In this document: positions 1 through 51,172 of the stretch, piece after piece
Numbering within the stretch: position 1 is the first letter of the stretch
Layout: each line of letters begins with the position of its first letter
DNA from: Escherichia coli
GTDB lineage: Bacteria > Pseudomonadota > Gammaproteobacteria > Enterobacterales > Enterobacteriaceae
Length of the DNA: 64,000 bases
Assembly: GCF_046105845.1 (NCBI RefSeq)
Contig: NZ_CP151004.1
Strand: one strand, 5' to 3'
Translations under genes and position numbers: made by a program
Notes under the pieces: generated by a model
Seen by the model: the letters and a program-made list of their open reading frames with translations, nothing else
What the model was told of the DNA's origin: nothing
Databases searched by the model: none

Positions 1-1085
<1,085 letters not shown>

Positions 1086-5481: not shown

Positions 5482-5510
5482 GGGCAGCACGACGCTGCCC
5501 GATTGCTTTC
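5482..5510 (+). terminator. Putative terminator hairpin after dapD
   Basis: Stem gggcagc / gctgccc with 5-nt loop, followed by a moderately T-rich tract. Confidence 0.45.
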
Positions 5511-5783
5511 TGGTTCAGAATAATTCGTCCTACTCATTCTTCTTCCCCCCTTTTTTAAATACTTTTTCATCTTGTTTCGGACTGTCATGTAATTCGCAAA
5601 ACGAAGATAAATGTGCTAATCCATCCCATGGAATATCGCCACAATAAAGCAGGTAATTTTTTGATTTTTACGCCATGATAGAAGTCTGGAAGAAAAAGGC
5701 TTTCTGCGATCACAGTCGAGCCGGGCGGGCCAGGCCAAATGCTAAAATAAGCACAATTTACTGACTCATTTTGAGGTAACGCT

Positions 5784-7570: not shown

Positions 7571-8995
7571 TTACTGCATTAACAGGTAGATGGTGCTGTC
7601 GCCGCGCTGAATGTTCAGTGCCAGCACAGACGGTTTGCTGTCGAGAACTTTACGCAGTTCAGCGATGTTTTTCACTGCCTGCTGGTTCGCGCCGATAATC
7701 ACATCACCTTTCTTCAGGCCGATCTGCGCAGCCGGAGTGCCCGTTTTCACGTTGTTCACTACCACGCCCTGATCTTTGCCTTTGTTGCTCATCTCAGCGC
7801 CTTCAATACCGTTGAAGATGGAGCTGGAATCAACCTGATTCTGGCTGCTCTGCTGCAGTTCCAGATTCACGTTGACCTGCTTACCGTCGCGCAGCAAGCC
7901 CAGGGTCAGTTTGCTGCCCACCGGCATAGTACCCACCTGAGCACGCAGGGCGGCAAAGCTGCTGATTGGCTTACCGTTCAGTGAGGTGATCACATCTCCC
8001 GCTTTAATGCCCGCTTTTGCAGCGGAGGAATTAGGCAGAACCTGGCTTACGAAAGCACCGCGCTGGGCGTCAACTTTCATCGCTTTCGCCAGTTCGGAGT
8101 TCAGCTCAGTCCCCATAATACCCAGCTCACCGCGTTTCACCTGGCCGTATTCCACCATCTGCGAGGTCAGGTTTTTCACCATGTTGCTCGGGATAGCAAA
8201 ACCGATACCGATGTTGCCGCCGTCCGGTGCGAGGATCGCGGTGTTGATACCGATCAGTTCACCGTTCAGGTTAACCAGCGCACCACCGGAGTTACCACGG
8301 TTGATCGCTGCATCGGTCTGGATGAAGTTTTCGTAGTTTTCGGCATTCAGCCCGCTACGCCCCAGCGCAGAGACAATCCCGGAAGTTACCGTCTCACCCA
8401 GACCAAACGGGTTACCAATCGCTACGGTGTAATCACCCACGCGCAGTGCATCAGAATCCGCCATCTTAATTGCGGTCAGGTTTTTCGGGTTCTGGATCTG
8501 GATCAGCGCGATATCAGAGCGCGGATCTTTGCCGACCATCTTCGCGTCGAACTTACGGCCATCGCTCAGCTGGACTTTAATCACCGTCGCGTTATCAACA
8601 ACGTGGTTGTTGGTGACGACATAGCCTTTATCGGCATCAATGATGACGCCGGAACCCAGCGCCATGAATTTCTGTTGCTGGCCGCCACCATTACCGCCCT
8701 GGCCCCCCTGGCAGAACGGAGAGCTCTGGAACGGAGAACCTTCCTGGCAGAACGGAGAATCATCACCGAAGAACTGCTGGAAATTACGCGGCATACGCGG
8801 CGTATTAACGGTTGTGCTACCTTCTACGTTAATGCTGACCACTGAAGGCATCACCTTTTCGAGCATCGGTGCAAGGCTTGGCATCTGCTGGGCTGTCGTT
8901 GCTGAAGAAGTCTCAGCCGCCGTTGCAGAGAGCGGAGATAACGCCAAACCTAAACTCAGAGCCAGTGCACTCAGTGCTAATGTGGTTTTTTTCAT
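7571..8995 (-). CDS. degP: Periplasmic serine endoprotease DegP/HtrA
   Basis: 474-aa ORF MKKTTLALSALALSLGLALSPLSATAAETSSATTAQQMPSLAPMLEKVMPSVVSINVEG...; trypsin-like plus two PDZ regions. Confidence 0.97.
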   Translation of the reverse strand: MKKTTLALSALALSLGLALSPLSATAAETSSATTAQQMPSLAPMLEKVMPSVVSINVEGSTTVNTPRMPRNFQQFFGDDSPFCQEGSPFQSSPFCQGGQGGNGGGQQQKFMALGSGVIIDADKGYVVTNNHVVDNATVIKVQLSDGRKFDAKMVGKDPRSDIALIQIQNPKNLTAIKMADSDALRVGDYTVAIGNPFGLGETVTSGIVSALGRSGLNAENYENFIQTDAAINRGNSGGALVNLNGELIGINTAILAPDGGNIGIGFAIPSNMVKNLTSQMVEYGQVKRGELGIMGTELNSELAKAMKVDAQRGAFVSQVLPNSSAAKAGIKAGDVITSLNGKPISSFAALRAQVGTMPVGSKLTLGLLRDGKQVNVNLELQQSSQNQVDSSSIFNGIEGAEMSNKGKDQGVVVNNVKTGTPAAQIGLKKGDVIIGANQQAVKNIAELRKVLDSKPSVLALNIQRGDSTIYLLMQ

Positions 8996-9040
8996 GTATT
9001 TCAGTCTCGATTAACAGATAACGCAAAATTGCTGTGTTCT

Positions 9041-14996: not shown

Positions 14997-16277
14997 ATGA
15001 GTAAGTCTGAAAATCTTTACAGCGCAGCGCGCGAGCTGATCCCTGGCGGTGTGAACTCCCCTGTTCGCGCCTTTACTGGCGTGGGCGGCACTCCACTGTT
15101 TATCGAAAAAGCGGACGGCGCTTATCTGTACGATGTTGATGGCAAAGCCTATATCGATTATGTCGGTTCCTGGGGGCCGATGGTGCTGGGCCATAACCAT
15201 CCGGCGATCCGCAATGCCGTGATTGAAGCCGCCGAGCGTGGTTTAAGCTTTGGTGCACCAACCGAAATGGAAGTGAAAATGGCGCAACTGGTGACCGAAC
15301 TGGTCCCGACCATGGATATGGTGCGCATGGTGAACTCCGGCACTGAAGCGACCATGAGCGCCATCCGCCTGGCCCGTGGTTTTACCGGTCGCGACAAAAT
15401 TATTAAATTTGAAGGTTGTTACCACGGTCACGCTGACTGCCTGCTGGTGAAAGCCGGTTCTGGCGCACTCACGTTAGGCCAGCCAAATTCGCCGGGCGTT
15501 CCGGCAGATTTCGCCAAACATACCTTAACCTGTACTTATAACGATCTGGCCTCTGTACGCGCCGCGTTTGAGCAATACCCGCAAGAGATTGCCTGTATTA
15601 TCGTCGAGCCGGTGGCAGGCAATATGAACTGCGTTCCACCGCTGCCAGAGTTCCTGCCAGGTCTGCGCGCGCTGTGCGACGAATTTGGCGCGTTGCTGAT
15701 CATCGATGAAGTGATGACCGGTTTCCGCGTAGCGCTAGCTGGCGCACAGGATTATTACGGTGTGGAACCGGATCTCACCTGCCTCGGCAAAATCATCGGC
15801 GGTGGAATGCCGGTAGGCGCATTCGGTGGTCGTCGTGATGTAATGGATGCGCTGGCCCCGACCGGTCCGGTCTATCAGGCGGGTACGCTTTCCGGTAACC
15901 CGATTGCGATGGCTGCTGGTTTCGCCTGTCTGAATGAAGTCGCGCAGCCGGGCGTTCACGAAACGCTGGATGAGCTGACAACACGTCTGGCAGAAGGTCT
16001 GCTGGAAGCGGCAGAAGAAGCCGGAATTCCGCTGGTGGTAAACCACGTTGGCGGCATGTTCGGTATTTTCTTTACCGACGCCGAGTCCGTGACGTGCTAT
16101 CAGGATGTGATGGCCTGTGACGTGGAACGCTTTAAGCGTTTCTTCCATATGATGCTGGACGAAGGTGTTTATCTGGCACCGTCAGCGTTTGAAGCGGGCT
16201 TTATGTCTGTGGCGCACAGCATGGAAGATATCAATAACACCATCGATGCTGCACATCGGGTGTTTGCGAAGTTGTGA
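14997..16277 (+). CDS. hemL: Glutamate-1-semialdehyde 2,1-aminomutase
   Basis: 426-aa [52 protein letters not shown]... Confidence 0.97.
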
Positions 16278-16285
16278 TGATTTTG

Positions 16286-16306
16286 CCTCGCCCACCGGGC
16301 GAGGCA
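16286..16306. terminator. Hairpin between convergent hemL and fhuB
   Basis: Stem gcctcgccc / gggcgaggc with 3-nt loop filling most of a 34-bp spacer. Confidence 0.4.
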
Positions 16307-16311
16307 TTCAA

Positions 16312-18294
16312 TTAACGGCTCTGCTTTCTCAACAAATAGATAAAATATGGCGCGCCGATAAAGGTCGACAGCAGCCCCGCTGGGATCTGGAATGGAAACA
16401 GCACCATCCGCCCACACCAGTCAGCGAACACCAGCAGTAAACCACCCACCAGCGCCGAAATTACGATGTGTGGCATCGTCCGTCGAAAGCCCATCATCCG
16501 CGCAATATGCGGTGCCATTAAACCAACAAAACTCAACGGTCCAATAGTCATCGTCGCGGTCGCCGTCAGGCAAGCCGCTAATAGCAGCAGCGCAATTCGC
16601 GTCGGCGTCAGCGCCATTCCTACGGCTCGTGCGGTATCACCGCCCAGCGGTAAAATGGTCAGCCAGCGGCGGCACAGCGGGGTAATCGCCAGCAAAATTA
16701 CCATCGCAATTCCCGTGCGCCAGACCTGCGCATCGGTCGCGTTGTAGGTCGAACCGGAAATCCAAGTCAGAACTTGCGCCATTCGCGGGTCACCACTTGC
16801 CTGCAACATCATCAAAAGCATGGTGAACGCGGTACTTAACGCCATCCCCGCCAGTAGCATGCGGTGTGGGGAAAATCCACCGCGGCCGGCGGCGATCATA
16901 ATGATCAACAGCGTCACCGCCGCCCCGAGACTACCCGCAGGTAACAGCCAGCCAAAGGCATTACCCGGCACCAGAAACAGCATCAACACCACGCCAAACG
17001 CCGCGCCGGAGCTAATCCCCAGCACTTCCGGGCTTGCCATCGGGTTGCCGGTCAGCCGCTGAATAATACAGCCCGCCACCGCCAGCATGACTCCCGCAAA
17101 CAGCGCCGCCATAATTCGCGGCCAGCGCCAGGGCATTAAATCCTCGAGCAACGCCCCGCTCGCCCACGTCCAGCCGTGCGCATCACGGCCAAACGACAGC
17201 GCCACCACCACTGCCATCAACAGCAGCACGCCGCCCGCGAGGGCAAACGCCAGCACATGTTGGCGTTCAGCAGCGACACGATCGTTCACCTTCATATCCG
17301 GCGCGCTAATGCTGCGTAAACGCGGCAGCAGCCAAAGTAGCAGCGGCGCACCTATCAACGCAGTGACCGAACCGGTAGAAACTTCCATCCACACGCGAGT
17401 CAGCCAGAGGATGATTTGATCAGAAAGCCACAGAATTAACGCCCCAATCAGCGACGCCAGCATCAATCGTGGCAACAAACGCCGCGCCCCCAGCATTTTT
17501 GCCAGCAGTGGCGCGAACAACCCGATAAAGCCGATAATCCCCACCGCATTCACCAGCAGCGCACTGATGACTATCGCCAGCGTCAGCGCCGCCAGACGCG
17601 CGAGCGACAAGGCCAGCCCGAGATTGCGCGCCACGCCATCATCAAGCCCCATCAGGGTTAACGGGCGAAGTAGCAATAACGTCAGCATCACGCCGCCCAG
17701 CAGCTGCGGCCATAAACGCTCAACGCCGCCCCAGTCGGTTTGCGTCAGCGTTCCGGTGCTCCACAGAAACATGCTTTGCAGTTGGTCATGATGGAAGATA
17801 ACCAGTAACTGATTGATTGCACCGCAATAAAGGCTCACTACCAGCCCCGCGAGAATCAGCGTTACCGGCGACAGCCGTTTCCCCCACGCGACGCCAAAGA
17901 CAATTAAGCCAACCACACAAGCCCCTGCCAGTGCAGCAAACTGGCTCGCCATAGCACCTGGGATCGCCCAGAGCGTGGTGACGGTAATCCCCAGTTGCGC
18001 GCCTGTAGCAACGCCCAGCGTCGTCGGTTCCGCCAGCGGGTTACGCAGCACTTGCTGAAACAGCACGCCCACCAGCCCCAGGCCCGCGCCCACCAGCAGC
18101 GAAATCGCCAGACGCGGCAGCAAGCTGTAGTGAAAAATCATCTGCTCGATGACATCGATATCCGGCGACCAGGCAGCCTGCGCCCACTGGCTACGCGGCA
18201 GCGCTTGCGAAAAGTTCATCCAGGTGAGCGCCGCTGCGACAATCACCAGCAGCGCCAGCAATAACGCCGGGAAAAGCGCAATTCGTTTACTCAC
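16312..18294 (-). CDS. fhuB: Ferric hydroxamate ABC transporter permease
   Basis: 660-aa ORF MSKRIALFPALLLALLVIVAAALTWMNFSQALPRSQWAQAAWSPDIDVIEQ...; duplicated FecCD-type permease halves. Confidence 0.96.
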   Translation of the reverse strand: MSKRIALFPALLLALLVIVAAALTWMNFSQALPRSQWAQAAWSPDIDVIEQMIFHYSLLPRLAISLLVGAGLGLVGVLFQQVLRNPLAEPTTLGVATGAQLGITVTTLWAIPGAMASQFAALAGACVVGLIVFGVAWGKRLSPVTLILAGLVVSLYCGAINQLLVIFHHDQLQSMFLWSTGTLTQTDWGGVERLWPQLLGGVMLTLLLLRPLTLMGLDDGVARNLGLALSLARLAALTLAIVISALLVNAVGIIGFIGLFAPLLAKMLGARRLLPRLMLASLIGALILWLSDQIILWLTRVWMEVSTGSVTALIGAPLLLWLLPRLRSISAPDMKVNDRVAAERQHVLAFALAGGVLLLMAVVVALSFGRDAHGWTWASGALLEDLMPWRWPRIMAALFAGVMLAVAGCIIQRLTGNPMASPEVLGISSGAAFGVVLMLFLVPGNAFGWLLPAGSLGAAVTLLIIMIAAGRGGFSPHRMLLAGMALSTAFTMLLMMLQASGDPRMAQVLTWISGSTYNATDAQVWRTGIAMVILLAITPLCRRWLTILPLGGDTARAVGMALTPTRIALLLLAACLTATATMTIGPLSFVGLMAPHIARMMGFRRTMPHIVISALVGGLLLVFADWCGRMVLFPFQIPAGLLSTFIGAPYFIYLLRKQSR

Positions 18295-22491: not shown

Positions 22492-25023
22492 TTAATTACT
22501 ACCAAACATATCCTTGATCCAACCGGCTACACCGTCGCTGTCTTTCTGCTCTTGCTGAGCAGGTTGCTGTTGCGGCTGTTGCTGCGGCTGAGAAGACTGA
22601 TCAAACGGATTGCCTGACGGTTGCTGCTGCATCTCACTCTGCTGGCACAGCGATTGCGGATCGCTGGTCCAGACCGGCAAGACACGCATGCCACCGCTGC
22701 AAACAAAGTTGCCGTCGTAGTCCACGCCCATATCTGCAATATCTTCTGGCGGAACAAGATTCAGCGGTGTTGGCGTCTGGTTAGCCAGATAACGCTGATA
22801 AATCGACATTGCCCCGCTGGCTCCATACAGTTTGGTCGGTTGGTTGTTATCACGGCCTACCCAGGTGATGGTCACCGTGCTGCCGTCAATGCCCGCAAAC
22901 CAGGTATCTACGTTATTGTTGGTAGTCCCTGTTTTCCCTGCCAGATGCAGGTTCGGGTATTTCGCCCCAAGCTGACGACCCGTACCGCGTTGTACAACCT
23001 GCTGCATGGTCCATAGTGTCAGATACGCCGCCTGCGCCGGAACAGCGCGTTCCGCCTGCGGGAAGCTCTGATACAGCACTTTGCCATCTTCCGCGATTAC
23101 CGAACGCAGCGCAGAAAGCGGTGCACGGTTACCACCGCTGGCGATGGTCTGGAATGCCTGCGCCACTTCGATTGGCGTTAAGTTCAACGCCCCCAGCAGC
23201 ATTGCCGGAACCGGATGCAGCTGATCTTTCGGTACGCCCAGTTTGATCCAGGTCTCCGTAACCGCAGGCAGCCCCAGCGCCATCCCCAGATTTACCGTCG
23301 GCACGTTCATCGAACGGGTCAACGCATCCACCAGCATCACTCTGCCGCTTTCGCTATAACGACGGTCATCGTTCTGCGGTGACCAGACCTGGCCATTCGG
23401 CTGACGTAGCGCGATTGGCGCATCCGCAATCCACGTGTTCAGGCGATAGATTTTCGGCTGGCTTAAGGCCGTCAGATAAGTCGCTGGTTTTGCAAGAGAA
23501 CCAATCGAACGACGCGCCTGCATCGCACGGTTGTAGCCCGCAAACTGCGGCTCAGAACCACCGACCATCGCACGAACTTCACCACTAAAGCGGTCGACGA
23601 CCACAATCGCAGTTTCAAGATCGCTCAGCTTACGCTGTTTCTTCAGTGCCGGAATGCCTTCCACGGCGGCTTTTTCTGCCGCGTCCTGTGCCACCGAGTC
23701 AAATGTAGTGAAGATCTTCACGCCGGAGAGATCTTTTACCTTATCGCCCAGTTTTGCCTGCAGCTCCTGACGCACCAGTTGCATAAAGGCTGGCTGAGGA
23801 GAGATCACCCCACCGCGCGGCTGAACACCCAGCGGACGTGCACTCAACATGTCATAGAGTTCTTGATCAATAATCTGTTGCTGTTGCAGCAAACGTAGCA
23901 CCAGGTTACGTCGCTCCAGCGCCAGTTTCGGGTTACGCCACGGGTTGTAGATGGACGCCCCTTTCACCATACCCACCAACAGCGCCTGCTGATCGAGGCT
24001 CAATTCTTCTACCGGACGACCAAAGTAATACAAGCTCGCCAGCGGGAAGCCGCGGATTTCGTTGTCGCCGCTCTGACCGAGATACACCTCGTTCATATAC
24101 AGCTCAAGAATACGGTCTTTGCTGTAACGCGCGTCCATGATCAGCGCCATGTAAGCTTCGTTCGCTTTACGCCAGTAAGAGCGCTCGCTGGAGAGGAACA
24201 GGTTTTTCACCAGCTGTTGCGTCAGCGTACTCGCACCCTGCACCGTGCGTCCGGCGGTCAGGTTTGCCAGCACCGCACGTCCGATGGAGTAGAGACTGAT
24301 CCCATCATGCTCGTAGAAATGGCGGTCTTCTGTCGCCAGCAAAGTATCCACCAGCAAATCAGGGAAACCACTGCGCGGCACAAACAGACGTTGCTCACCG
24401 TTTGGCGAGGAGATCATGGTGATCAGGCGCGGATCAAGACGGAAGAAACCAAACTGACGGTTGTTCTCCATATTGACGATGGTCGCCAGATGATCGCCAT
24501 CAAAGGTCAGACGCGCACGCACCTGCCCTTCTTTACTGTCCGGGAAATCAAACGGACGGCGGATCATCTCAATGCTGTTGGCCTGCACGGTAAATTCGCC
24601 AGGACGGGTCATTTTCGACACCTGACGATACTGGGTCGCCTCCAGCAGCTTCACCATCTCGTTCTTGCTGATGGTCATGTCTGGCTCAAGGTTGACCATC
24701 CGGCCATAAACTGCCGCGGGCAGTTGCCAGACCTTACCATCAATACGGCTGCGAATTTTTTGATCGAGATAAACGCCGTAAATGGCGATCAGCACGGCAA
24801 AAACGATAGCCAGTTTTAGCAGCAGCCATAGCCAGCCGCGTTTGCCACGAGGCTTACGCCCTTTGCCTTTGCCCTTACCTTTGCGTGGCATCGGTTCTTC
24901 ATCCTCATAGTCATCATAATCGTCGTAATCGTCATCTTCGTAACGACGACGGCTTACCTTTTGTTTGACCGGACGCGTCGGTTTCCCTTTGCGTCCAATT
25001 GGCTCGCGGTCATTCCCGGCCAT
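22492..25023 (-). CDS. mrcB: Penicillin-binding protein 1B (bifunctional glycosyltransferase/transpeptidase)
   Basis: ORF 22492-25038 (-); start taken at [23 protein letters not shown] (843 aa); acidic [14 protein letters not shown] and KGKGKGKG tracts then transmembrane helix. Confidence 0.95.
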
Positions 25024-25116
25024 GCTTTTTCTCCGCAATATTCAGGCGCAAAAGCCCGATTTTCTGTTCTTCTGTTGCAAGACAGAAGAAGATATCTCTC
25101 AAATTTGCTTTGGTCT

Positions 25117-27546
25117 TCACGAATACTTTTTCGTCCGTCGCGTCGGTGCAGTATTTGCCGGGTCGTCCGGCCAGACATGTTTGGGATAACGCCCTTTCAT
25201 CTCTTTTTGCACCTCACGGTACGCTCCTTTCCAGAAGGCGCTCAAATCTCGTGTGATTTGTAATGGCCTTTGGGCAGGGGAAAGCAACTCCAGCACCAGC
25301 GGCACGCGCCCCTGGGCGATCGTCGGATTGGTGGCCTCACCAAACATCTCCTGCATTCTCACCGCCAGCGCGGGCGGGTTATCTTCATGATAACGAATGG
25401 CGATTCGGCTTCCCGTCGGCACAGTGTAATGCGCAGGCAATTCACTATCCAGACGTTGCTGCATTCCCCAATCAAGTAATCCGCGTAGTGCCTGATAAAT
25501 GTCGAGTGATTTCAGGCCGCGTAGTGAATGCACGCCGCTCATATGCGGCAGTAGCCACGTTTCCAGCGTCGCCAACAAACTCTCATCATCAACCGCTGGC
25601 CAGTCATATTCCGGCAACCACTTTGCGGCGCATAACAAACGCAAGCGTAGCTGTTCCGCTTCCGCCGTCCAGTTGAGCACGCTTAAACCTTTATCACGAA
25701 TGCCGTTAAGCATCGCCTGATGCAACTCGTCTTCCGAGGGTTTCGCCAGTGGCTGCACTTTCACCGTCAACTGACCGATTTGCAGCCGACGCCAGGCTTT
25801 CAGCGTACCTTGCGCGTCATCCCACTCCACAGTGTCAGACTGCTGTACCAGCTGCGGGCAGAGTTGTACTAATTCATCGATATCGACCGGTAGCGCCAGT
25901 AAAATCCGCGCATCCGGCGAGGCGCTGCCCTGCAATAATAACGGTGCGATCAACCATTCGTGGCGGCTTAGCGCATCGTCGGCATCGAGCATCGCCCCCA
26001 TGCCGTTTGCCAGTTGATAGCGTCCATCTTGCCCACGGCGACGAGCAATGCGATCGGCATACGCCCCGGCAAGTAGCGGCGCGATAAGCGAACTGTCTGC
26101 CTCACCGCCGCGTACGTTTAAACGTTTTAACAGTTGCTGACTACGTTGCTGCCAGGCGGGTTGATTGCGCGAAAACTCCACGCCCAGGTCACTATTGCCC
26201 ATCCGTGGCGGCTCTTCGAGAATGGCGGCAATTTTTGCCGCGGTAGCAGCTTCGTCGTCGTTCTTCGCGCTAACCAGCATTGCCGCTAAACGCGGATCGT
26301 TACCCAGCGCTGCCATTTTTTGCCCTTGCGCACTAAGCCGTTCACCGTCCAGCGCCCCCAGCATCCGTAACAGGCGTTTCGCGGCCAGTAGATTCACCGT
26401 TGGCGGTTGATCCAGCCAGCTCATCTGCGCCGGATCGCTGCATCCCCATTGCAGTAATTCCATCAGCAAACCGGAAAGATCGCTTTGTAATATTTCCGGT
26501 TCACTTTGCGCCGCGGCGCGTTCGGCTTGTTCTTTGGCGATTAAATGCAGGCAGATACCCGGCTCCAGACGCCCGGCGCGCCCGGCACGCTGCGTCATGG
26601 ATGCCTGGCTAACGCGTTGAGTAATCAGTCGCGTAAGCCCCGTGCGCGGATCAAAACGCGCCACACGCTCCTGGGCACAATCCACCACCAGACGAATACC
26701 TTCAATGGTTAAACTGGTTTCAGCAATATTGGTCGCCAGCACCACTTTGCGCATCCCTTGCGGTGCCGGGAGGATCGCTTTTCGTTGATCGTTCAGCGAC
26801 AACGCGCCATACAGCGGGCAGAGCAACACATCACTGCCGATGCGCGAAGCCAGTTGTTCCTGCACGCGCTGAATTTCTCCGACGCCAGGTAAAAATAACA
26901 GTAATGATCCACTTTCCTGACGCAGCGTTTCGGCGGTGGCTACCGCAACGGCTTCGTCAAAACGCTGATGCGCGGGCAGCGGTAAATAACGGCGTTCAAC
27001 CGGAAACGAGCGCCCTTCTGAGATGACGACGGGCGCTCCTGGCAGCATTTGCTGCAAGCGGTCGTTGTCCAGCGTAGCCGACATAATCAGCAGTTTAAGG
27101 TCATCACGCAGACCTTGTTGCACATCGAGTAACAGCGCCAACGCCAAATCCGCCTGCAAGCTGCGCTCATGAAACTCATCGAGGATCACCAATCCAACAC
27201 CGCTCAGTTCAGGGTCACGCTGGATCATGCGCGTCAGCACGCCTTCGGTAACCACTTCCAGGCGGGTATTCGGCCCGACGCAGTTTTGCGCACGCATCCG
27301 GTAGCCAACGGTATCGCCTGGCTTTTCGTTAAGCAGCTCCGCCAGTCGTTGCGCAACGTTACGCGCCGCCAAACGACGCGGCTCCAACAGGATAATTTTC
27401 CCGTTAATGCCGGGATGCGCCAGCAGTTGCAGCGGCAGCCAGGTTGATTTCCCGGCCCCGGTCGGCGCACTTAATAACACCTGCGATGCACAATCGAGAG
27501 CGGTAAGTAATTCAGGTAAGACGGCAGCAACGGGCAACGACGACAC
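25117..27546 (-). CDS. hrpB: ATP-dependent RNA helicase HrpB (DEAH-box)
   Basis: ORF 25117-27591 (-); GTG at 27544-27546 gives VSSLPVAAVLPELLTAL... (809 aa), the length I recall for HrpB; motifs GAGKST and DEFH. Confidence 0.85.
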   Translation of the reverse strand: MSSLPVAAVLPELLTALDCASQVLLSAPTGAGKSTWLPLQLLAHPGINGKIILLEPRRLAARNVAQRLAELLNEKPGDTVGYRMRAQNCVGPNTRLEVVTEGVLTRMIQRDPELSGVGLVILDEFHERSLQADLALALLLDVQQGLRDDLKLLIMSATLDNDRLQQMLPGAPVVISEGRSFPVERRYLPLPAHQRFDEAVAVATAETLRQESGSLLLFLPGVGEIQRVQEQLASRIGSDVLLCPLYGALSLNDQRKAILPAPQGMRKVVLATNIAETSLTIEGIRLVVDCAQERVARFDPRTGLTRLITQRVSQASMTQRAGRAGRLEPGICLHLIAKEQAERAAAQSEPEILQSDLSGLLMELLQWGCSDPAQMSWLDQPPTVNLLAAKRLLRMLGALDGERLSAQGQKMAALGNDPRLAAMLVSAKNDDEAATAAKIAAILEEPPRMGNSDLGVEFSRNQPAWQQRSQQLLKRLNVRGGEADSSLIAPLLAGAYADRIARRRGQDGRYQLANGMGAMLDADDALSRHEWLIAPLLLQGSASPDARILLALPVDIDELVQLCPQLVQQSDTVEWDDAQGTLKAWRRLQIGQLTVKVQPLAKPSEDELHQAMLNGIRDKGLSVLNWTAEAEQLRLRLLCAAKWLPEYDWPAVDDESLLATLETWLLPHMSGVHSLRGLKSLDIYQALRGLLDWGMQQRLDSELPAHYTVPTGSRIAIRYHEDNPPALAVRMQEMFGEATNPTIAQGRVPLVLELLSPAQRPLQITRDLSAFWKGAYREVQKEMKGRYPKHVWPDDPANTAPTRRTKKYS

Positions 27547-27619
27547 AAAACGCTCCAGAGGGTTAACATTCTTCGCGGCACATTGTAGCATCGCGGTAAT
27601 TCATAACCGAGTGCCTCAC

Positions 27620-32767: not shown

Positions 32768-33352
32768 ATGTCTAAAAAATTAGGTTTTGCCCTGTCTGGT
32801 CTTATGCTGGCAATGGTTGCAGGTACTGCTTCTGCTGATATGGACGGTGGTCAGTTAAATATCAGTGGCCTGGTTGTTGATAACACCTGTGAAACCCGCG
32901 TTGACGGCGGTAACAAAGATGGCCTGATCCTGCTGCAAACCGCAACCGTTGGTGAAATCGATGCAGGCGTACTCGAAACTACCGTTGGTGCCAAGGCTAA
33001 ACCTTTCAGCATCACCGTTGATTGCAGCAAAGCAAACCCTGCACCGGGCAGCTCTGCCAAAATGACCTTCGGTTCCGTGTTCTTTGGTAACAGCAAAGGT
33101 ACGCTGAACAACGATATGTCTATCAATAACCCATCTGACGGTGTGAATATTGCTCTGCACAACATTGACGGTTCCACTGTTAAGCAGGTAAAAATTAATA
33201 ATCCTGGCGATGTTTACACTAAAGCACTGGACGCGACCACTAAATCTGTAACCTATGATTTTAAAGCATCCTATGTTCGTGCTGTAAATGACCAGACGGC
33301 AACTGCTGGTTATGTAAAAACCAATACCGCATATACCGTTACTTATCAGTAA
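32768..33352 (+). CDS. yadN: Major fimbrial subunit (pilin)
   Basis: ORF 32744-33352; start taken at [23 protein letters not shown] (signal peptide, 194 aa); pilin-type C-terminus ...YTVTYQ. Confidence 0.9.
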
Positions 33353-33457
33353 TATTTCACCGAATTAATTGATTTAGTGAATATATAGGGAATAACATTG
33401 CCTGTAATTATGACAATGATTATTCCCTGTTCTAAATAATTCGATCAGGGATGGTTT

Positions 33458-34198
33458 ATGTTTTTTAATACAAAACATACTGTAGCATTATGCTTTGCAA
33501 CCTGTTTAGCTTTTAGCTCTTCAGCTATTGCAGATATCGTCATTTCAGGTACACGCGTTATTTACACAAGCGATCAAAAAAGTGTCAATGTACGTCTGGA
33601 AAATAAAGGCAATAACCCATTGCTGGTCCAGAGTTGGTTAGATACCGGAGATGATAACGCCGAACCTGGCAGTATCAATGTCCCATTTACGGCGACTCCC
33701 CCTGTTTCACGTATTGACGGCAAACGCGGTCAAACAATCAAGCTGATGTATACCGGCAGTTCTGCTTTACCCAAAGATCGGGAAAGTGTGTTTTGGTTCA
33801 ATGTCCTCGAAGTTCCACCAAAACCCGACGCGGAAAAAATGGCTAACCAAAGCATGTTGCAACTGGCCTTCCGTACTCGCATCAAACTGTTTTATCGTCC
33901 GGAAGGACTCACCGGAATACCGTCCGATGCTCCGGCTGCACTGAAGTGGTCGTGGACAACATCCGGCGGCAAAGTGGCGCTTCGTGTCGTTAATCCTACC
34001 CCCTTCTACGTCTCTTTCAGCAGTGGTGACGTTGTCGCCAGCGGAAAGCGTTATCCGTTAGACGTCAAAATGATCGCGCCACGCAGTGAAGATGCCATCA
34101 CAGTTAATGGGATCAGTAGCAAAGTGAGTTCTGCACAAGTTCACTTCTTTGCCATTAATGATTTTGGCGGCGCAATTGAAGGCAATGCCACTCTGTAA
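33458..34198 (+). CDS. ecpD: Periplasmic fimbrial chaperone (PapD-like)
   Basis: 246-aa ORF MFFNTKHTVALCFATCLAFSSSAIADIVISGTRVIYTSDQKSVNVRLENKGNNPLLVQSW...; also named yadV. Confidence 0.93.
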   Translation: MFFNTKHTVALCFATCLAFSSSAIADIVISGTRVIYTSDQKSVNVRLENKGNNPLLVQSWLDTGDDNAEPGSINVPFTATPPVSRIDGKRGQTIKLMYTGSSALPKDRESVFWFNVLEVPPKPDAEKMANQSMLQLAFRTRIKLFYRPEGLTGIPSDAPAALKWSWTTSGGKVALRVVNPTPFYVSFSSGDVVASGKRYPLDVKMIAPRSEDAITVNGISSKVSSAQVHFFAINDFGGAIEGNATL

Positions 34199-34232
34199 AG
34201 TCTTCAGGATCACACGCAGCAGGAAGCAAAAC

Positions 34233-36833
34233 GTGAACAAAAAAACAACTACAAATTATCACTATCCCCTTACACATATCGCCACGTTTTGCGCACTGCT
34301 TTACAGCAGTAGTGCTTTAAGCGCCGAGCACGTTGAGTATGACAATACCTTCCTGATGGGTCGTGATGCTTCAAATATTGATCTTAGTCGCTATAGCGAG
34401 GGTAACCCAACATTACCAGGCCTTTACGACGTCAGCGTTTATATCAACGACCAGCCCGTCACCAACCAGAGCATTGCCTTTGTTACGGTTGAGGGTAAGA
34501 AAAACGCTCAGGCTTGTCTCACCCTGAAGAACTTATTGCAGTTTCATATCAATCAACCCGATATCAATGTTGCTAATGCCGTGCTGCTTGCAAGGGACAA
34601 CGAACTCGGGGATTGCCTCAACCTGGCGGAACTCATCCCCCAGACGTCGATTCGTTATGATGTCAACGATCAGCGCCTGGACATCTATGTTCCCCAGGCA
34701 TGGGTAATGAAAAATTACCAAAACTATGTTGATCCTTCCTTGTGGGAAAACGGTATCAACGCTGCAATGTTGTCTTACAACGTCAACGCATATCACAGTG
34801 AAAGCCCCGACAGGAAAAATGACAGTGTTTATGCTGCTTTTAATGGCGGTATGAATTTAGGAGCATGGCGGTTACGCGCTACCGGTAACTACAGTTGGAG
34901 GAATGATTCAGACAGTAACTATGACTTTCAGAATCGCTACCTCCAGCGCGATCTCGCATCCTTACGCTCGCAGTTAATTGTCGGTGAGTCATATACCACG
35001 GGTGAAACCTTCGATTCAGTCAGCATTCGGGGAGTTCGCTTATATAGCGACAGTCGCATGTTACCCCCTGCGTTAGCCAGTTTTGCGCCAATTATTCATG
35101 GTGTTGCGAACACTAACGCCAAGGTCACTATTACCCAGGGCAGTTATAAGATCTATGAAACCACCGTACCGCCAGGTGCGTTTGTCATCGATGATCTTAG
35201 CCCATCGGGTTACGGCAGCGATCTTATCGTCACTATTGAAGAAGCGGATGGTTCAAAGCGTACTTTCTCACAACCATTTTCATCAGTTGTACAGATGTTA
35301 CGGCCAGGCGTCGGGCGCTGGGATATCAGCGGTGGTCAGATCATAAAAGACGATATTCAAGACGAGCCCAATCTTTTTCAGGCCAGTTATTACTACGGTT
35401 TAAACAACTATCTGACCGGTTATACCGGGATCCAACTTACTGACAATCATTACACTGCCGGATTACTGGGTCTGGGCCTGAATACCTCTTTAGGTGCTTT
35501 TTCATTCGATATCACCCATTCAAATGTCAGCATTCCGGATGATAAAACCTATCAGGGGCAAAGCTATCGCCTCTCCTGGAACAAATTATTCGAAAATACC
35601 AATACATCGCTAAATATCGCGGCTTATCGCTATTCAACGCAGAATTACCTTGGCCTTAACGACGCACTGACTTTAATCGACGAAGTAAAACATCCGGAAC
35701 AGGACCTCGAACCGCAAACCATGCGTAACTACTCTCGCATGAAAAATCAGGTGACGGTCAGCATTAGCCAACCGCTGAAATTTGAGAAACAGGATTACGG
35801 TTCATTCTATCTCACCGGGGATTGGTCAGATTACTGGGCTTCCGGGCAAAATCGCAGCAATTACTCTATTGGTTACAGTAATAGCGCTTCCTGGGGGAGT
35901 TACAGCATCAGTGCACAACGTTCATGGAATGAGGATGGTGAAACGGATGATAGCATCTACCTTAGTTTCACCATTCCAATTGAAAAATTATTAGGCACAA
36001 GCCATCGCGATTCCGGTTTTCAGAGTATTGATACTCAGTTAAATAGTGATTTTAAAGGCAATAATCAGCTCAACATCAGCAGCAGTGGCTTTAGCGACGC
36101 AAATCGCGTCAGTTACAGCGTAAACACCGGCTATACAATGATGAAAGCCAGTGACGATTTAAGTTACATCGGTGGTTATGCCAGTTACGAATCGCCCTGG
36201 GGAACGCTTGCAGGTTCCGTTTCCGCAAGTAGCGATAACAGTCGTCAATTCTCGCTTAATACTGACGGTGGATTCGTGCTGCACAGCGGCGGCCTGACAT
36301 TCAGTAACGATAGCTTTAGCGACTCCGACACACTTGCCGTTGTACAAGCCCCTGGAGCAAAAGGTGCGCGCATTAACTATGGCAACAGTACAGTAGACCG
36401 CTGGGGATACGGCGTGACCAGTGCCCTCTCGCCATATCATGAAAACCGTATCGCTCTGGACATTAGCGGAATCGAAAATGATGTAGAAATGAAATCTACC
36501 AGTGCAATTGCCGTCCCTCGTCAGGGCTCTGTTGTCTTCGCCGATTTTGAAACCGTCCAGGGACAATCGGCAATCATGAATATTAAACGTACTGACGGTA
36601 AAAATATTCCATTCGCGGCGGATATCTTTGATGAACAAAATAACATGATTGGTAACGTCGGCCAGGGCGGACAAGCTTTTGTTCGAGGCATCGAACAGCA
36701 AGGTAATATCCGCATCAACTGGGTTGAAGAGGGTAAACCTGTCGCATGTATTGCCCATTATAAGCAAACAGCGGATCAACAAAAATTAACACAAACTATT
36801 ATTCTGAATGGAATTAGTTGTCAGATACAGTAA
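34233..36833 (+). CDS. htrE: Fimbrial outer membrane usher
   Basis: ORF 34149-36833 overlaps ecpD; start placed at GTG 34233 after AGGAAG ribosome-binding site, giving (M)NKKTTTNYHYPLTHIATFCALLYSSSALSAEHVEYDNTFLMG... (866 aa). Confidence 0.88.
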   Translation: MNKKTTTNYHYPLTHIATFCALLYSSSALSAEHVEYDNTFLMGRDASNIDLSRYSEGNPTLPGLYDVSVYINDQPVTNQSIAFVTVEGKKNAQACLTLKNLLQFHINQPDINVANAVLLARDNELGDCLNLAELIPQTSIRYDVNDQRLDIYVPQAWVMKNYQNYVDPSLWENGINAAMLSYNVNAYHSESPDRKNDSVYAAFNGGMNLGAWRLRATGNYSWRNDSDSNYDFQNRYLQRDLASLRSQLIVGESYTTGETFDSVSIRGVRLYSDSRMLPPALASFAPIIHGVANTNAKVTITQGSYKIYETTVPPGAFVIDDLSPSGYGSDLIVTIEEADGSKRTFSQPFSSVVQMLRPGVGRWDISGGQIIKDDIQDEPNLFQASYYYGLNNYLTGYTGIQLTDNHYTAGLLGLGLNTSLGAFSFDITHSNVSIPDDKTYQGQSYRLSWNKLFENTNTSLNIAAYRYSTQNYLGLNDALTLIDEVKHPEQDLEPQTMRNYSRMKNQVTVSISQPLKFEKQDYGSFYLTGDWSDYWASGQNRSNYSIGYSNSASWGSYSISAQRSWNEDGETDDSIYLSFTIPIEKLLGTSHRDSGFQSIDTQLNSDFKGNNQLNISSSGFSDANRVSYSVNTGYTMMKASDDLSYIGGYASYESPWGTLAGSVSASSDNSRQFSLNTDGGFVLHSGGLTFSNDSFSDSDTLAVVQAPGAKGARINYGNSTVDRWGYGVTSALSPYHENRIALDISGIENDVEMKSTSAIAVPRQGSVVFADFETVQGQSAIMNIKRTDGKNIPFAADIFDEQNNMIGNVGQGGQAFVRGIEQQGNIRINWVEEGKPVACIAHYKQTADQQKLTQTIILNGISCQIQ

Positions 36834-36849
36834 CAACAAGGAATCTCAC

Positions 36850-37416
36850 ATGATAAAAATAGCACCCTATAAATTGGCGATACTGACGGGAATAATGTTA
36901 TCTCCTTGTGTATTAGCTACGGATATTAATGTCGAATTTACGGCAACCGTAAAAGCAACGACATGTAATATTAAGATAACCGGTAATAATGTCACCGAAG
37001 ACGGAAATGACAGTTATACGTTAACATTACCCAATATGGGTCTGGATCAAATAGTAAATAAAACCACCAGGGCCCAGGCTGACTTTACGATGGTAGCCAG
37101 TGGTTGCAGTGCAGGTATCAGCCATATTGATACTACATTGTCAGGTAATGGGTCCCGAACCTTTGATAGACTTGTTATACCGCTGTCTTCAGACACCACA
37201 TCAACCACCAGTTATATCGGTATGGGGTTCAAAAAACGTAATGCTGGTGATGAAACATTTTTAAAACCAAACAGCGCAGAAAAAATACGCTGGAGTGCAA
37301 CAGAAATTAGTACCACAGGTCTGGAAATGACCGTGGCACTACGTGAAACGAGCGCAGGTGAGGGGATACCCGGAGACTTTCGTGCTCAGGCAATTTTCAA
37401 TTTCACCTATGAATAA
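36850..37416 (+). CDS. yadM: Fimbrial minor subunit
   Basis: ORF 36808-37416; start taken at MIKIAPYKLAILTGIMLSPCVLA (signal peptide, 188 aa). Confidence 0.85.
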   Translation: MIKIAPYKLAILTGIMLSPCVLATDINVEFTATVKATTCNIKITGNNVTEDGNDSYTLTLPNMGLDQIVNKTTRAQADFTMVASGCSAGISHIDTTLSGNGSRTFDRLVIPLSSDTTSTTSYIGMGFKKRNAGDETFLKPNSAEKIRWSATEISTTGLEMTVALRETSAGEGIPGDFRAQAIFNFTYE

Positions 37417-37430
37417 CAAGGATGACAATG

Positions 37431-51126: not shown

Positions 51127-51131
51127 CCATA

Positions 51132-51153
51132 ATGCCCGGAGAGATCCGGGCAT
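51132..51153. terminator. Hairpin between convergent gcd and cueO
   Basis: Stem atgcccgg / ccgggcat with 6-nt loop, flanked by A/T. Confidence 0.45.
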
Positions 51154-51172
51154 ATTTCCGAATACGGTCTTT

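Follow-up and report, generated by a model that had tools for sequence, protein, structure and literature searches.

Repeat-free alleles at three intergenic sites of a non-K-12 strain of Escherichia coli

The genes hemL and fhuB are aligned convergently in the window, by which we mean the whole 64,000-nt stretch of E. coli DNA analyzed here. Their stop codons had been predicted to lie only 34 bp apart, and both the ORF coordinates and the raw sequence agree with this distance. The features of the locus, with the source of each, are as follows.

14997-16277, + strand: hemL (glutamate-1-semialdehyde aminomutase), stop codon TGA at 16275-16277; ORF list, matching annotated E. coli hemL
16278-16311: convergent hemL/fhuB spacer, 34 bp from stop to stop, the repeat-free 'hairpin' allele; sequence
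16284-16306: perfect hairpin T-GCCTCGCCC-ACC-GGGCGAGGC-A, with a 10-bp stem and a 3-nt loop; RNA fold
16312-18294, - strand: fhuB (ferric hydroxamate ABC permease), stop codon at 16312-16314; ORF list and annotation of matching genomes

Read in the fhuB sense, the 34-bp spacer is TTGAATGCCTCGCCCGGTGGGCGAGGCAAAATCA, and almost all of it is one perfect GC-rich hairpin with a stem of 9-10 bp and a loop of 3 nt. The RNA fold of the hairpin at 16284-16306 gave -25.8 kcal/mol (z -4.2) for the + strand and -23.3 kcal/mol (z -4.0) for the - strand. The stem is identical in the five E. coli sampled, hence the absence of compensatory changes among them is uninformative, while the tail differs between strains. 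Directly after the hairpin on the + strand, in the hemL sense, the window carries ATTCAATT, with T at 4 of the 8 bases following the stem; the corresponding tail is the U-richer ATTTTATT in O157:H7 and ATTCTATT in other sampled E. coli. In the fhuB sense there is an A-run.

The length of the fhuB/hemL spacer was surveyed by scanning one genome per species, and was obtained for 59 species of Enterobacteriaceae with this gene pair. It ranged from 34 to 538 bp with a median of 90, and the 34 bp of the window is the shortest of the 59, which is an observation of length and not a statistical one. In 17 of the 59 species the spacer is 60 bp or shorter, and all 17 contain exactly one GC-rich hairpin each, with unrelated sequences, which argues that the hairpin architecture itself is selected. 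As a separate observation, Kosakonia and several other genera carry a short fhuB/hemL hairpin with BoxC-like stems, either CCCTCTCCC/GGGAGAGGG or CCCTCACCC/GGGTGAGGG, so that sequences of BoxC type turn up repeatedly in this spacer in genera other than Escherichia.

The hairpin of the window is most likely a 3'-end or terminator hairpin of the hemL transcript, and we infer for it a role as terminator or stabilizer. It would form where the hemL transcript ends, serving there as a weak intrinsic terminator and 3'-end protector; in E. coli strains with the U-richer tail, the same hairpin could serve as a stronger hemL terminator. On the opposite strand it would close the fhuACDB transcript, and since no U-tract follows in the fhuB sense, it could be only a structural barrier or stabilizer there. 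The arrangement resembles the intrinsic terminators of convergent genes, in which a single stable GC-rich stem-loop likewise lies a few bases after both stop codons, as recurs in the 17 species, but the U-tract of the window is weak in the hemL sense and missing in the fhuB sense. Compared with a rho-independent terminator, the GC-rich stem is present, but the tail ATTCAATT has T at 4/8 positions and the hairpin was not called by a simple terminator scan, which gave nothing between 16150 and 16450. Promoter and terminator scans of the hemL/fhuB and hrpB/mrcB spacers gave zero matches, and the covariance models of Rfam 15 gave no match at the gathering score in either spacer. Elsewhere in the window, two Rfam matches reached the gathering score, the t44 sRNA at 746-832 (- strand), upstream of rpsB, and the HtrA (degP) 5'-UTR thermometer at 8990-9035 (- strand).

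The REP element is defined as an imperfect palindrome of 30-40 nt with GTAG (or CTAC) beside the foot of the stem and a y, z1 or z2 consensus (PMC3333891). Against this definition, the window hairpin has neither GTAG nor CTAC, shows no mismatch in its stem and is present as a single copy. A 38-mer of the spacer was found in 3,713 of 5,426 complete E. coli genomes (exact in 2,244), in one place each, even in a blastn search with a word size of 11 and E values up to 10; a dispersed repeat was thereby ruled out.

In MG1655, the annotated spacer between fhuB (ending at 173444) and hemL (starting at 173602) is 157 bp long (173445-173601). The flanks of K-12 and of the window align up to both stop codons, but the two spacers share no homology save one base adjoining the fhuB stop codon. 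The K-12 spacer folds into three REP-type hairpins, with the following units.

Unit 1: GCCCGATGCGACGCTGGCGCGTCTTATCGGGCCTAC, z2-like, with CTAC at its end; matches the REP pattern with 2 mismatches
Unit 2: GTAGGTCGGATAAGGCGTTCACGCCGCATCCGAC, y-like, with GTAG at its start; head-to-head with unit GCCCGATGCGACGCTGGCGCGTCTTATCGGGCCTAC
Unit 3: degenerate

With its GTAG/CTAC units, inverted pairs and dispersed copies (a 257-bp K-12 query of this region was found in a median of 9 places per genome), the K-12 allele is a REP/BIME cluster and is BIME-2-like. When at least 80% coverage of the 257-bp segment was taken as the threshold, the K-12 form was observed in 1,701 of the 5,426 complete E. coli genomes, and a 70-mer of the window crossing the spacer in 3,697 of them. 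The hairpin allele is therefore the majority form in E. coli (about 68%) and the K-12 REP allele the minority form (about 31%), which makes K-12 atypical at hemL/fhuB. A literature search for published mention of the fhuB/hemL repeat found none.

Outside E. coli, a 157-bp REP spacer colinear with that of K-12 was observed in Escherichia sp. MOD1-EC7003 (17/157 differences) and in Escherichia sp. E1V33 (6/157), the differences from K-12 matching the divergence of the adjoining coding sequence in both. Salmonella and Citrobacter have other REPs in the fhuB/hemL spacer, and in more distant genera the spacer is often 35-58 bp long. Recent import of the K-12 REP spacer from a cryptic Escherichia lineage was also considered, and flank divergence gave no sign of it: the divergence of the flanks from the outgroups is equal for K-12 and the window right up to the spacer, and the divergence between K-12 and the window is not raised beside it.

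Since the REP spacer is present in two outgroup Escherichia lineages, the REP allele appears to be at least as old as E. coli; this polarity is read from two outgroups, MOD1-EC7003 and E1V33. Because the REP allele is shared with these two lineages, the hairpin allele most plausibly reflects a replacement of the whole spacer, and probably not the state before an insertion in K-12. It may have spread by homologous recombination through the genes flanking the spacer; both the direction and the mechanism of the replacement are inferred. A long-lived polymorphism of two alleles, or an older exchange between lineages, would be expected to give the same pattern at hemL/fhuB.

The second short spacer of the original prediction lies between hrpB and mrcB. 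The features around this spacer are given below; hrpB of K-12 is annotated with a length of 2430 nt.

22492-25023, - strand: mrcB (PBP1b), ATG at 25021-25023; ORF list, translation and alignment to the K-12 mrcB start
25024-25103, - strand: conserved block of about 80 bp directly upstream of mrcB; outgroup spacer sequences and alignment
25104-25119, - strand: empty BoxC/TMECO site, consisting of the hrpB stop codon TGA (25117-25119) and 13 nt; alignments
25117-27591, - strand: hrpB ORF, with its first ATG at 27591 and the K-12-equivalent start at about 27546; ORF list

The distance of 93 bp from the hrpB stop codon to the mrcB start (25024-25116) agrees with the ORF list and with the sequence, the stop codon occupying 25117-25119 on the - strand. 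The term 'convergent', which had been applied to both spacers, is correct for hemL/fhuB but not for hrpB/mrcB, where both genes lie on the same strand and the spacer runs co-directionally from stop to start. For other E. coli genomes with the window alleles, the RefSeq annotation gives the same gaps of 34 bp (hemL/fhuB) and 93 bp (hrpB/mrcB). Between hrpB (ending at 164534) and mrcB (starting at 164730), the annotated spacer of MG1655 is 195 bp long (164535-164729). The K-12 spacers, expected to be about 120 and 100 bp longer than those of the window, are 157 and 195 bp long in MG1655 and hence 123 and 102 bp longer, in agreement with the expectation.

Escherichia, Citrobacter, Salmonella, Pseudescherichia and Atlantibacter all conserve the 80-bp block upstream of mrcB, which in two Citrobacter species makes up the entire hrpB/mrcB spacer and which presumably serves as the control region and 5' leader of mrcB. 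The extra DNA of K-12, about 102 bp, runs from base 2 of the hrpB stop codon, which is TAA there and TGA in the window, to just before the conserved block. The stop codon is TGA in empty-site genomes and TAA in element-bearing ones, and the end of the protein is the same.

The K-12 extra DNA contains CCCTCTCCCTGTGGGAGAGGGCCGGGGTGAGGGC and an inverted CCCTCTCCCTTGAGGGAGAGGGTTAGGGTGAGGGT, which are identical to entries 1 and 2 in Table 1 of PMC4666352 (164547-164580 and 164631-164597) and stand at the same MG1655 coordinates. In that report, TMECO is equated with the BoxC and PIT elements, with the consensus CCCTCNCCC N3-6 GGGNGAGGG N3 GGGNGAGGG (PMC4666352), and the K-12 allele conforms to this consensus. 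The predicted fold of the K-12 region is one long nested palindrome, at -75.8 kcal/mol (z -7.6). The extra DNA at hrpB/mrcB is an inverted pair of BoxC/PIT/TMECO elements and not REP. The expectation of REP elements at both K-12 spacers is therefore borne out at hemL/fhuB, where REP units are present, but not at hrpB/mrcB. A search of the window for the BoxC pattern CCCTCTCCC-N4-GGGAGAGGG with up to 3 mismatches gave 0 matches.

Four lengths of the hrpB/mrcB spacer were distinguished.

93 bp, empty: the window, strains SA186 and 5283, E. albertii, and Escherichia sp. MOD1-EC7003
131 bp, hairpin stump: O111:H8 and Escherichia sp. E1V33
183 bp, partial deletion: O145
195 bp, full pair: K-12

Of the 5,426 E. 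coli genomes, 3,536 carry a form that spans 80% or more of the K-12 segment, and at least 1,488 carry the empty junction. Since the empty site is found in E. albertii and MOD1-EC7003, the empty state looks ancestral and the K-12 pair looks like a gain. In K-12 the inverted pair is inserted right at the hrpB stop codon, upstream of the conserved block, and in the 131- and 183-bp forms of other strains it is partly deleted. TMECO has been described as an intrastrand-triplex motif with presence/absence polymorphism across 56 strains (PMC4666352, Nucleic Acids Res 2015), in some of which pairs are wholly missing or partly deleted with a hairpin left (PMC4666352). The paper also cites earlier work in which these motifs showed neither promoter nor terminator activity (PMC4666352). 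The absences and partial deletions match the series of 93, 131, 183 and 195 bp, in which the window represents the empty site; the paper gives no polarity, and the outgroups used here point to the empty state as ancestral. Apart from this series, a genome labelled 'Escherichia coli SCPM-O-B-8794' has a hrpB/mrcB spacer of 137 bp (L006 3433-3569) with a degenerate element containing GGGGAGAGGG; it shares no more than about 91% identity with the window and is probably a non-coli Escherichia.

A third site of this kind is the spacer between cueO and gcd.

51127-51172: convergent gcd/cueO spacer, 46 bp, with one hairpin, ATGCCCGGAGAGATCCGGGCAT

The K-12 cueO/gcd spacer of 201 bp consists of the same hairpin plus a BIME-1 of 158 bp, composed of two REPs and a long linker. 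The K-12 form was observed in 2,742 of the 5,426 E. coli genomes, and the element occurs in about 38 or more places per genome. A search of the whole 64-kb window for the REP consensus, allowing 3 to 6 mismatches, gave 0 matches, and the orthologous stretch of K-12 (64.7 kb) has REPs at fhuB/hemL and cueO/gcd alone. Both of these K-12 alleles are clusters of the REP/BIME family (y, z1, z2; BIME-1, BIME-2); the window has none, and what it carries at fhuB/hemL is another sequence, present in single copy, and not an empty REP site. The claim that this genome 'lacks REP insertions' is misleading for hemL/fhuB, which is not K-12 minus an insert, the sequences being non-homologous and the outgroups carrying REP. 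All three small-repeat sites of K-12 are polymorphic in E. coli, and the window is repeat-free at each of them.

The whole window was compared by blastn with MG1655 from 124 to 193 kb, and the spacer lengths differ from those of MG1655. The overall identity is about 97.9%, with 97.3-98.6% in collinear blocks, and collinearity is interrupted at six places.

Interruptions 1-3: the hemL/fhuB spacer, the hrpB/mrcB spacer and the cueO/gcd spacer
Interruptions 4-6: the yaeI region, the rpnC 3' flank and the yacH internal repeat

The identity of the window to Escherichia sp. MOD1-EC7003 is 94.4%, to Escherichia sp. E1V33 91.6%, to E. albertii 90.7% and to Salmonella about 80%, indicating that the window belongs to E. 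coli proper. The strain behind the window is an E. coli but not K-12, in agreement with the suggestion of a close relative, the collinear blocks being 97.3-98.6% identical and the yad fimbrial region 73-93%.

The overall explanation that we favor, with a probability of about 80%, is that a non-K-12 E. coli carries repeat-free alleles at three intergenic sites where K-12 carries palindromic repeats. It is rather unlikely that the window simply represents the ancestral uninserted state at both spacers of the original prediction and that the K-12 lineage gained REP there by insertion. The empty 93-bp hrpB/mrcB spacer common to E. albertii and MOD1-EC7003 does indicate that the K-12 DNA was gained, but what was gained is BoxC/TMECO, the wrong repeat family (PMC4666352). 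The K-12 cueO/gcd spacer is the window form plus BIME-1, as insertion would predict. At fhuB/hemL, the short hairpin-only spacers of distant genera agree with an uninserted ancestor, but the K-12 and window spacers are non-homologous end to end, neither being the other plus an insert, and two outgroup Escherichia carry the colinear 157-bp REP spacer with a divergence matching that of the flanks.

It is improbable that the 34-bp hairpin is the stump of a mobile element of BoxC/TMECO type that displaced the BIME. GCCTCGCCC and GGGCGAGGC match the TMECO blocks CCCTCNCCC and GGGNGAGGG at 8 of 9 positions each, but the likeness of a 9-bp GC-rich stem to a GC-rich consensus is weak evidence, and the third TMECO block is missing from the hairpin. 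Deletions that leave a hairpin have been described (PMC4666352), and the 131-bp hrpB/mrcB allele may be compared with them; BoxC-like stems of the CCCTCTCCC/GGGAGAGGG type are likewise found in the fhuB/hemL spacer of several other genera. Against these points, the hairpin sequence occurs once per genome even in the permissive blastn search (11-base word, E values as high as 10), and the BoxC pattern search of the window was empty at up to 3 mismatches.

We consider it very doubtful that the two hemL/fhuB alleles form an old polymorphism maintained by selection, through different stability of, or read-through at, the 3' ends of hemL and fhuACDB. If this were true, the REP allele would have been kept since before the split between E. 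coli and the cryptic Escherichia, and the alleles would affect the heme-synthesis gene hemL and the iron-uptake operon fhuACDB. An assembly artefact is rejected as hardly credible: draft assemblies may collapse small repeats, but both junctions recur across complete genomes by the thousand, 3,697 for hemL/fhuB and at least 1,488 for hrpB/mrcB, and the RefSeq gene coordinates of matching genomes give identical gaps.

The hemL/fhuB spacer resembles the 'switched' intergenic regions that Oren et al. (PNAS, 2014) and Thorpe et al. (2018, 'Piggy') reportedly described in the E. coli pan-genome with emphasis on promoters. In both cases two non-homologous alleles between the same conserved genes segregate within the species, but those studies stress promoter regions, whereas hemL/fhuB is a 3'-3' spacer. 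Bachellier et al. (Genetics, 1997) are said to have described variation of REP/BIME elements in presence, absence and copy number among E. coli strains. The three sites provide a worked example in which a REP cluster, a BoxC pair and a BIME-1 are all polymorphic, one apparently by insertion and one apparently by replacement of the whole spacer. Caution is called for when K-12 annotation of terminators, 3'-UTRs or gyrase sites is transferred, because the elements are missing in many strains. Otherwise, the differences are of little importance beyond bookkeeping. REP/BIME clusters are known to differ between E. coli strains at given loci (Ton-Hoang et al. 2012, PMC3333891), and variation of REP/BIME and BoxC from strain to strain is established knowledge (PMC3333891, PMC4666352), with nothing surprising to the specialist.

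Several further differences from K-12 were observed along the window. At 33000-41900, which holds panB, panC and the yad fimbrial operon (yadN to yadC), identity to K-12 is only 73-93%, against 96-99% in the remainder of the window, indicating a divergent allele of the yad operon. Among the 5,426 complete RefSeq E. coli genomes, the closest over 26000-50000 (24 kb) reached at most 98.5% identity, the top matches being dog, mink, human and PCN033 strains, and the closest over 15780-16810 (1 kb) reached at most 99.3%; the source lineage of the window is without a close representative among these genomes. At 5505-5633, 129 bp of the window stand in place of 842 bp of K-12 (184246-185087), which include the whole of the phosphodiesterase gene yaeI, so that this gene is missing from the window. 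Directly after rpnC, about 295 bp at 41919-42213 have no K-12 counterpart; within them, the 3' end of rpnC is partly repeated at 42065-42211, with 96% identity to K-12 147715-147861. The internal repeat region of yacH, at 60012-60169, lacks about 99 bp relative to K-12, as judged from overlapping blast blocks.
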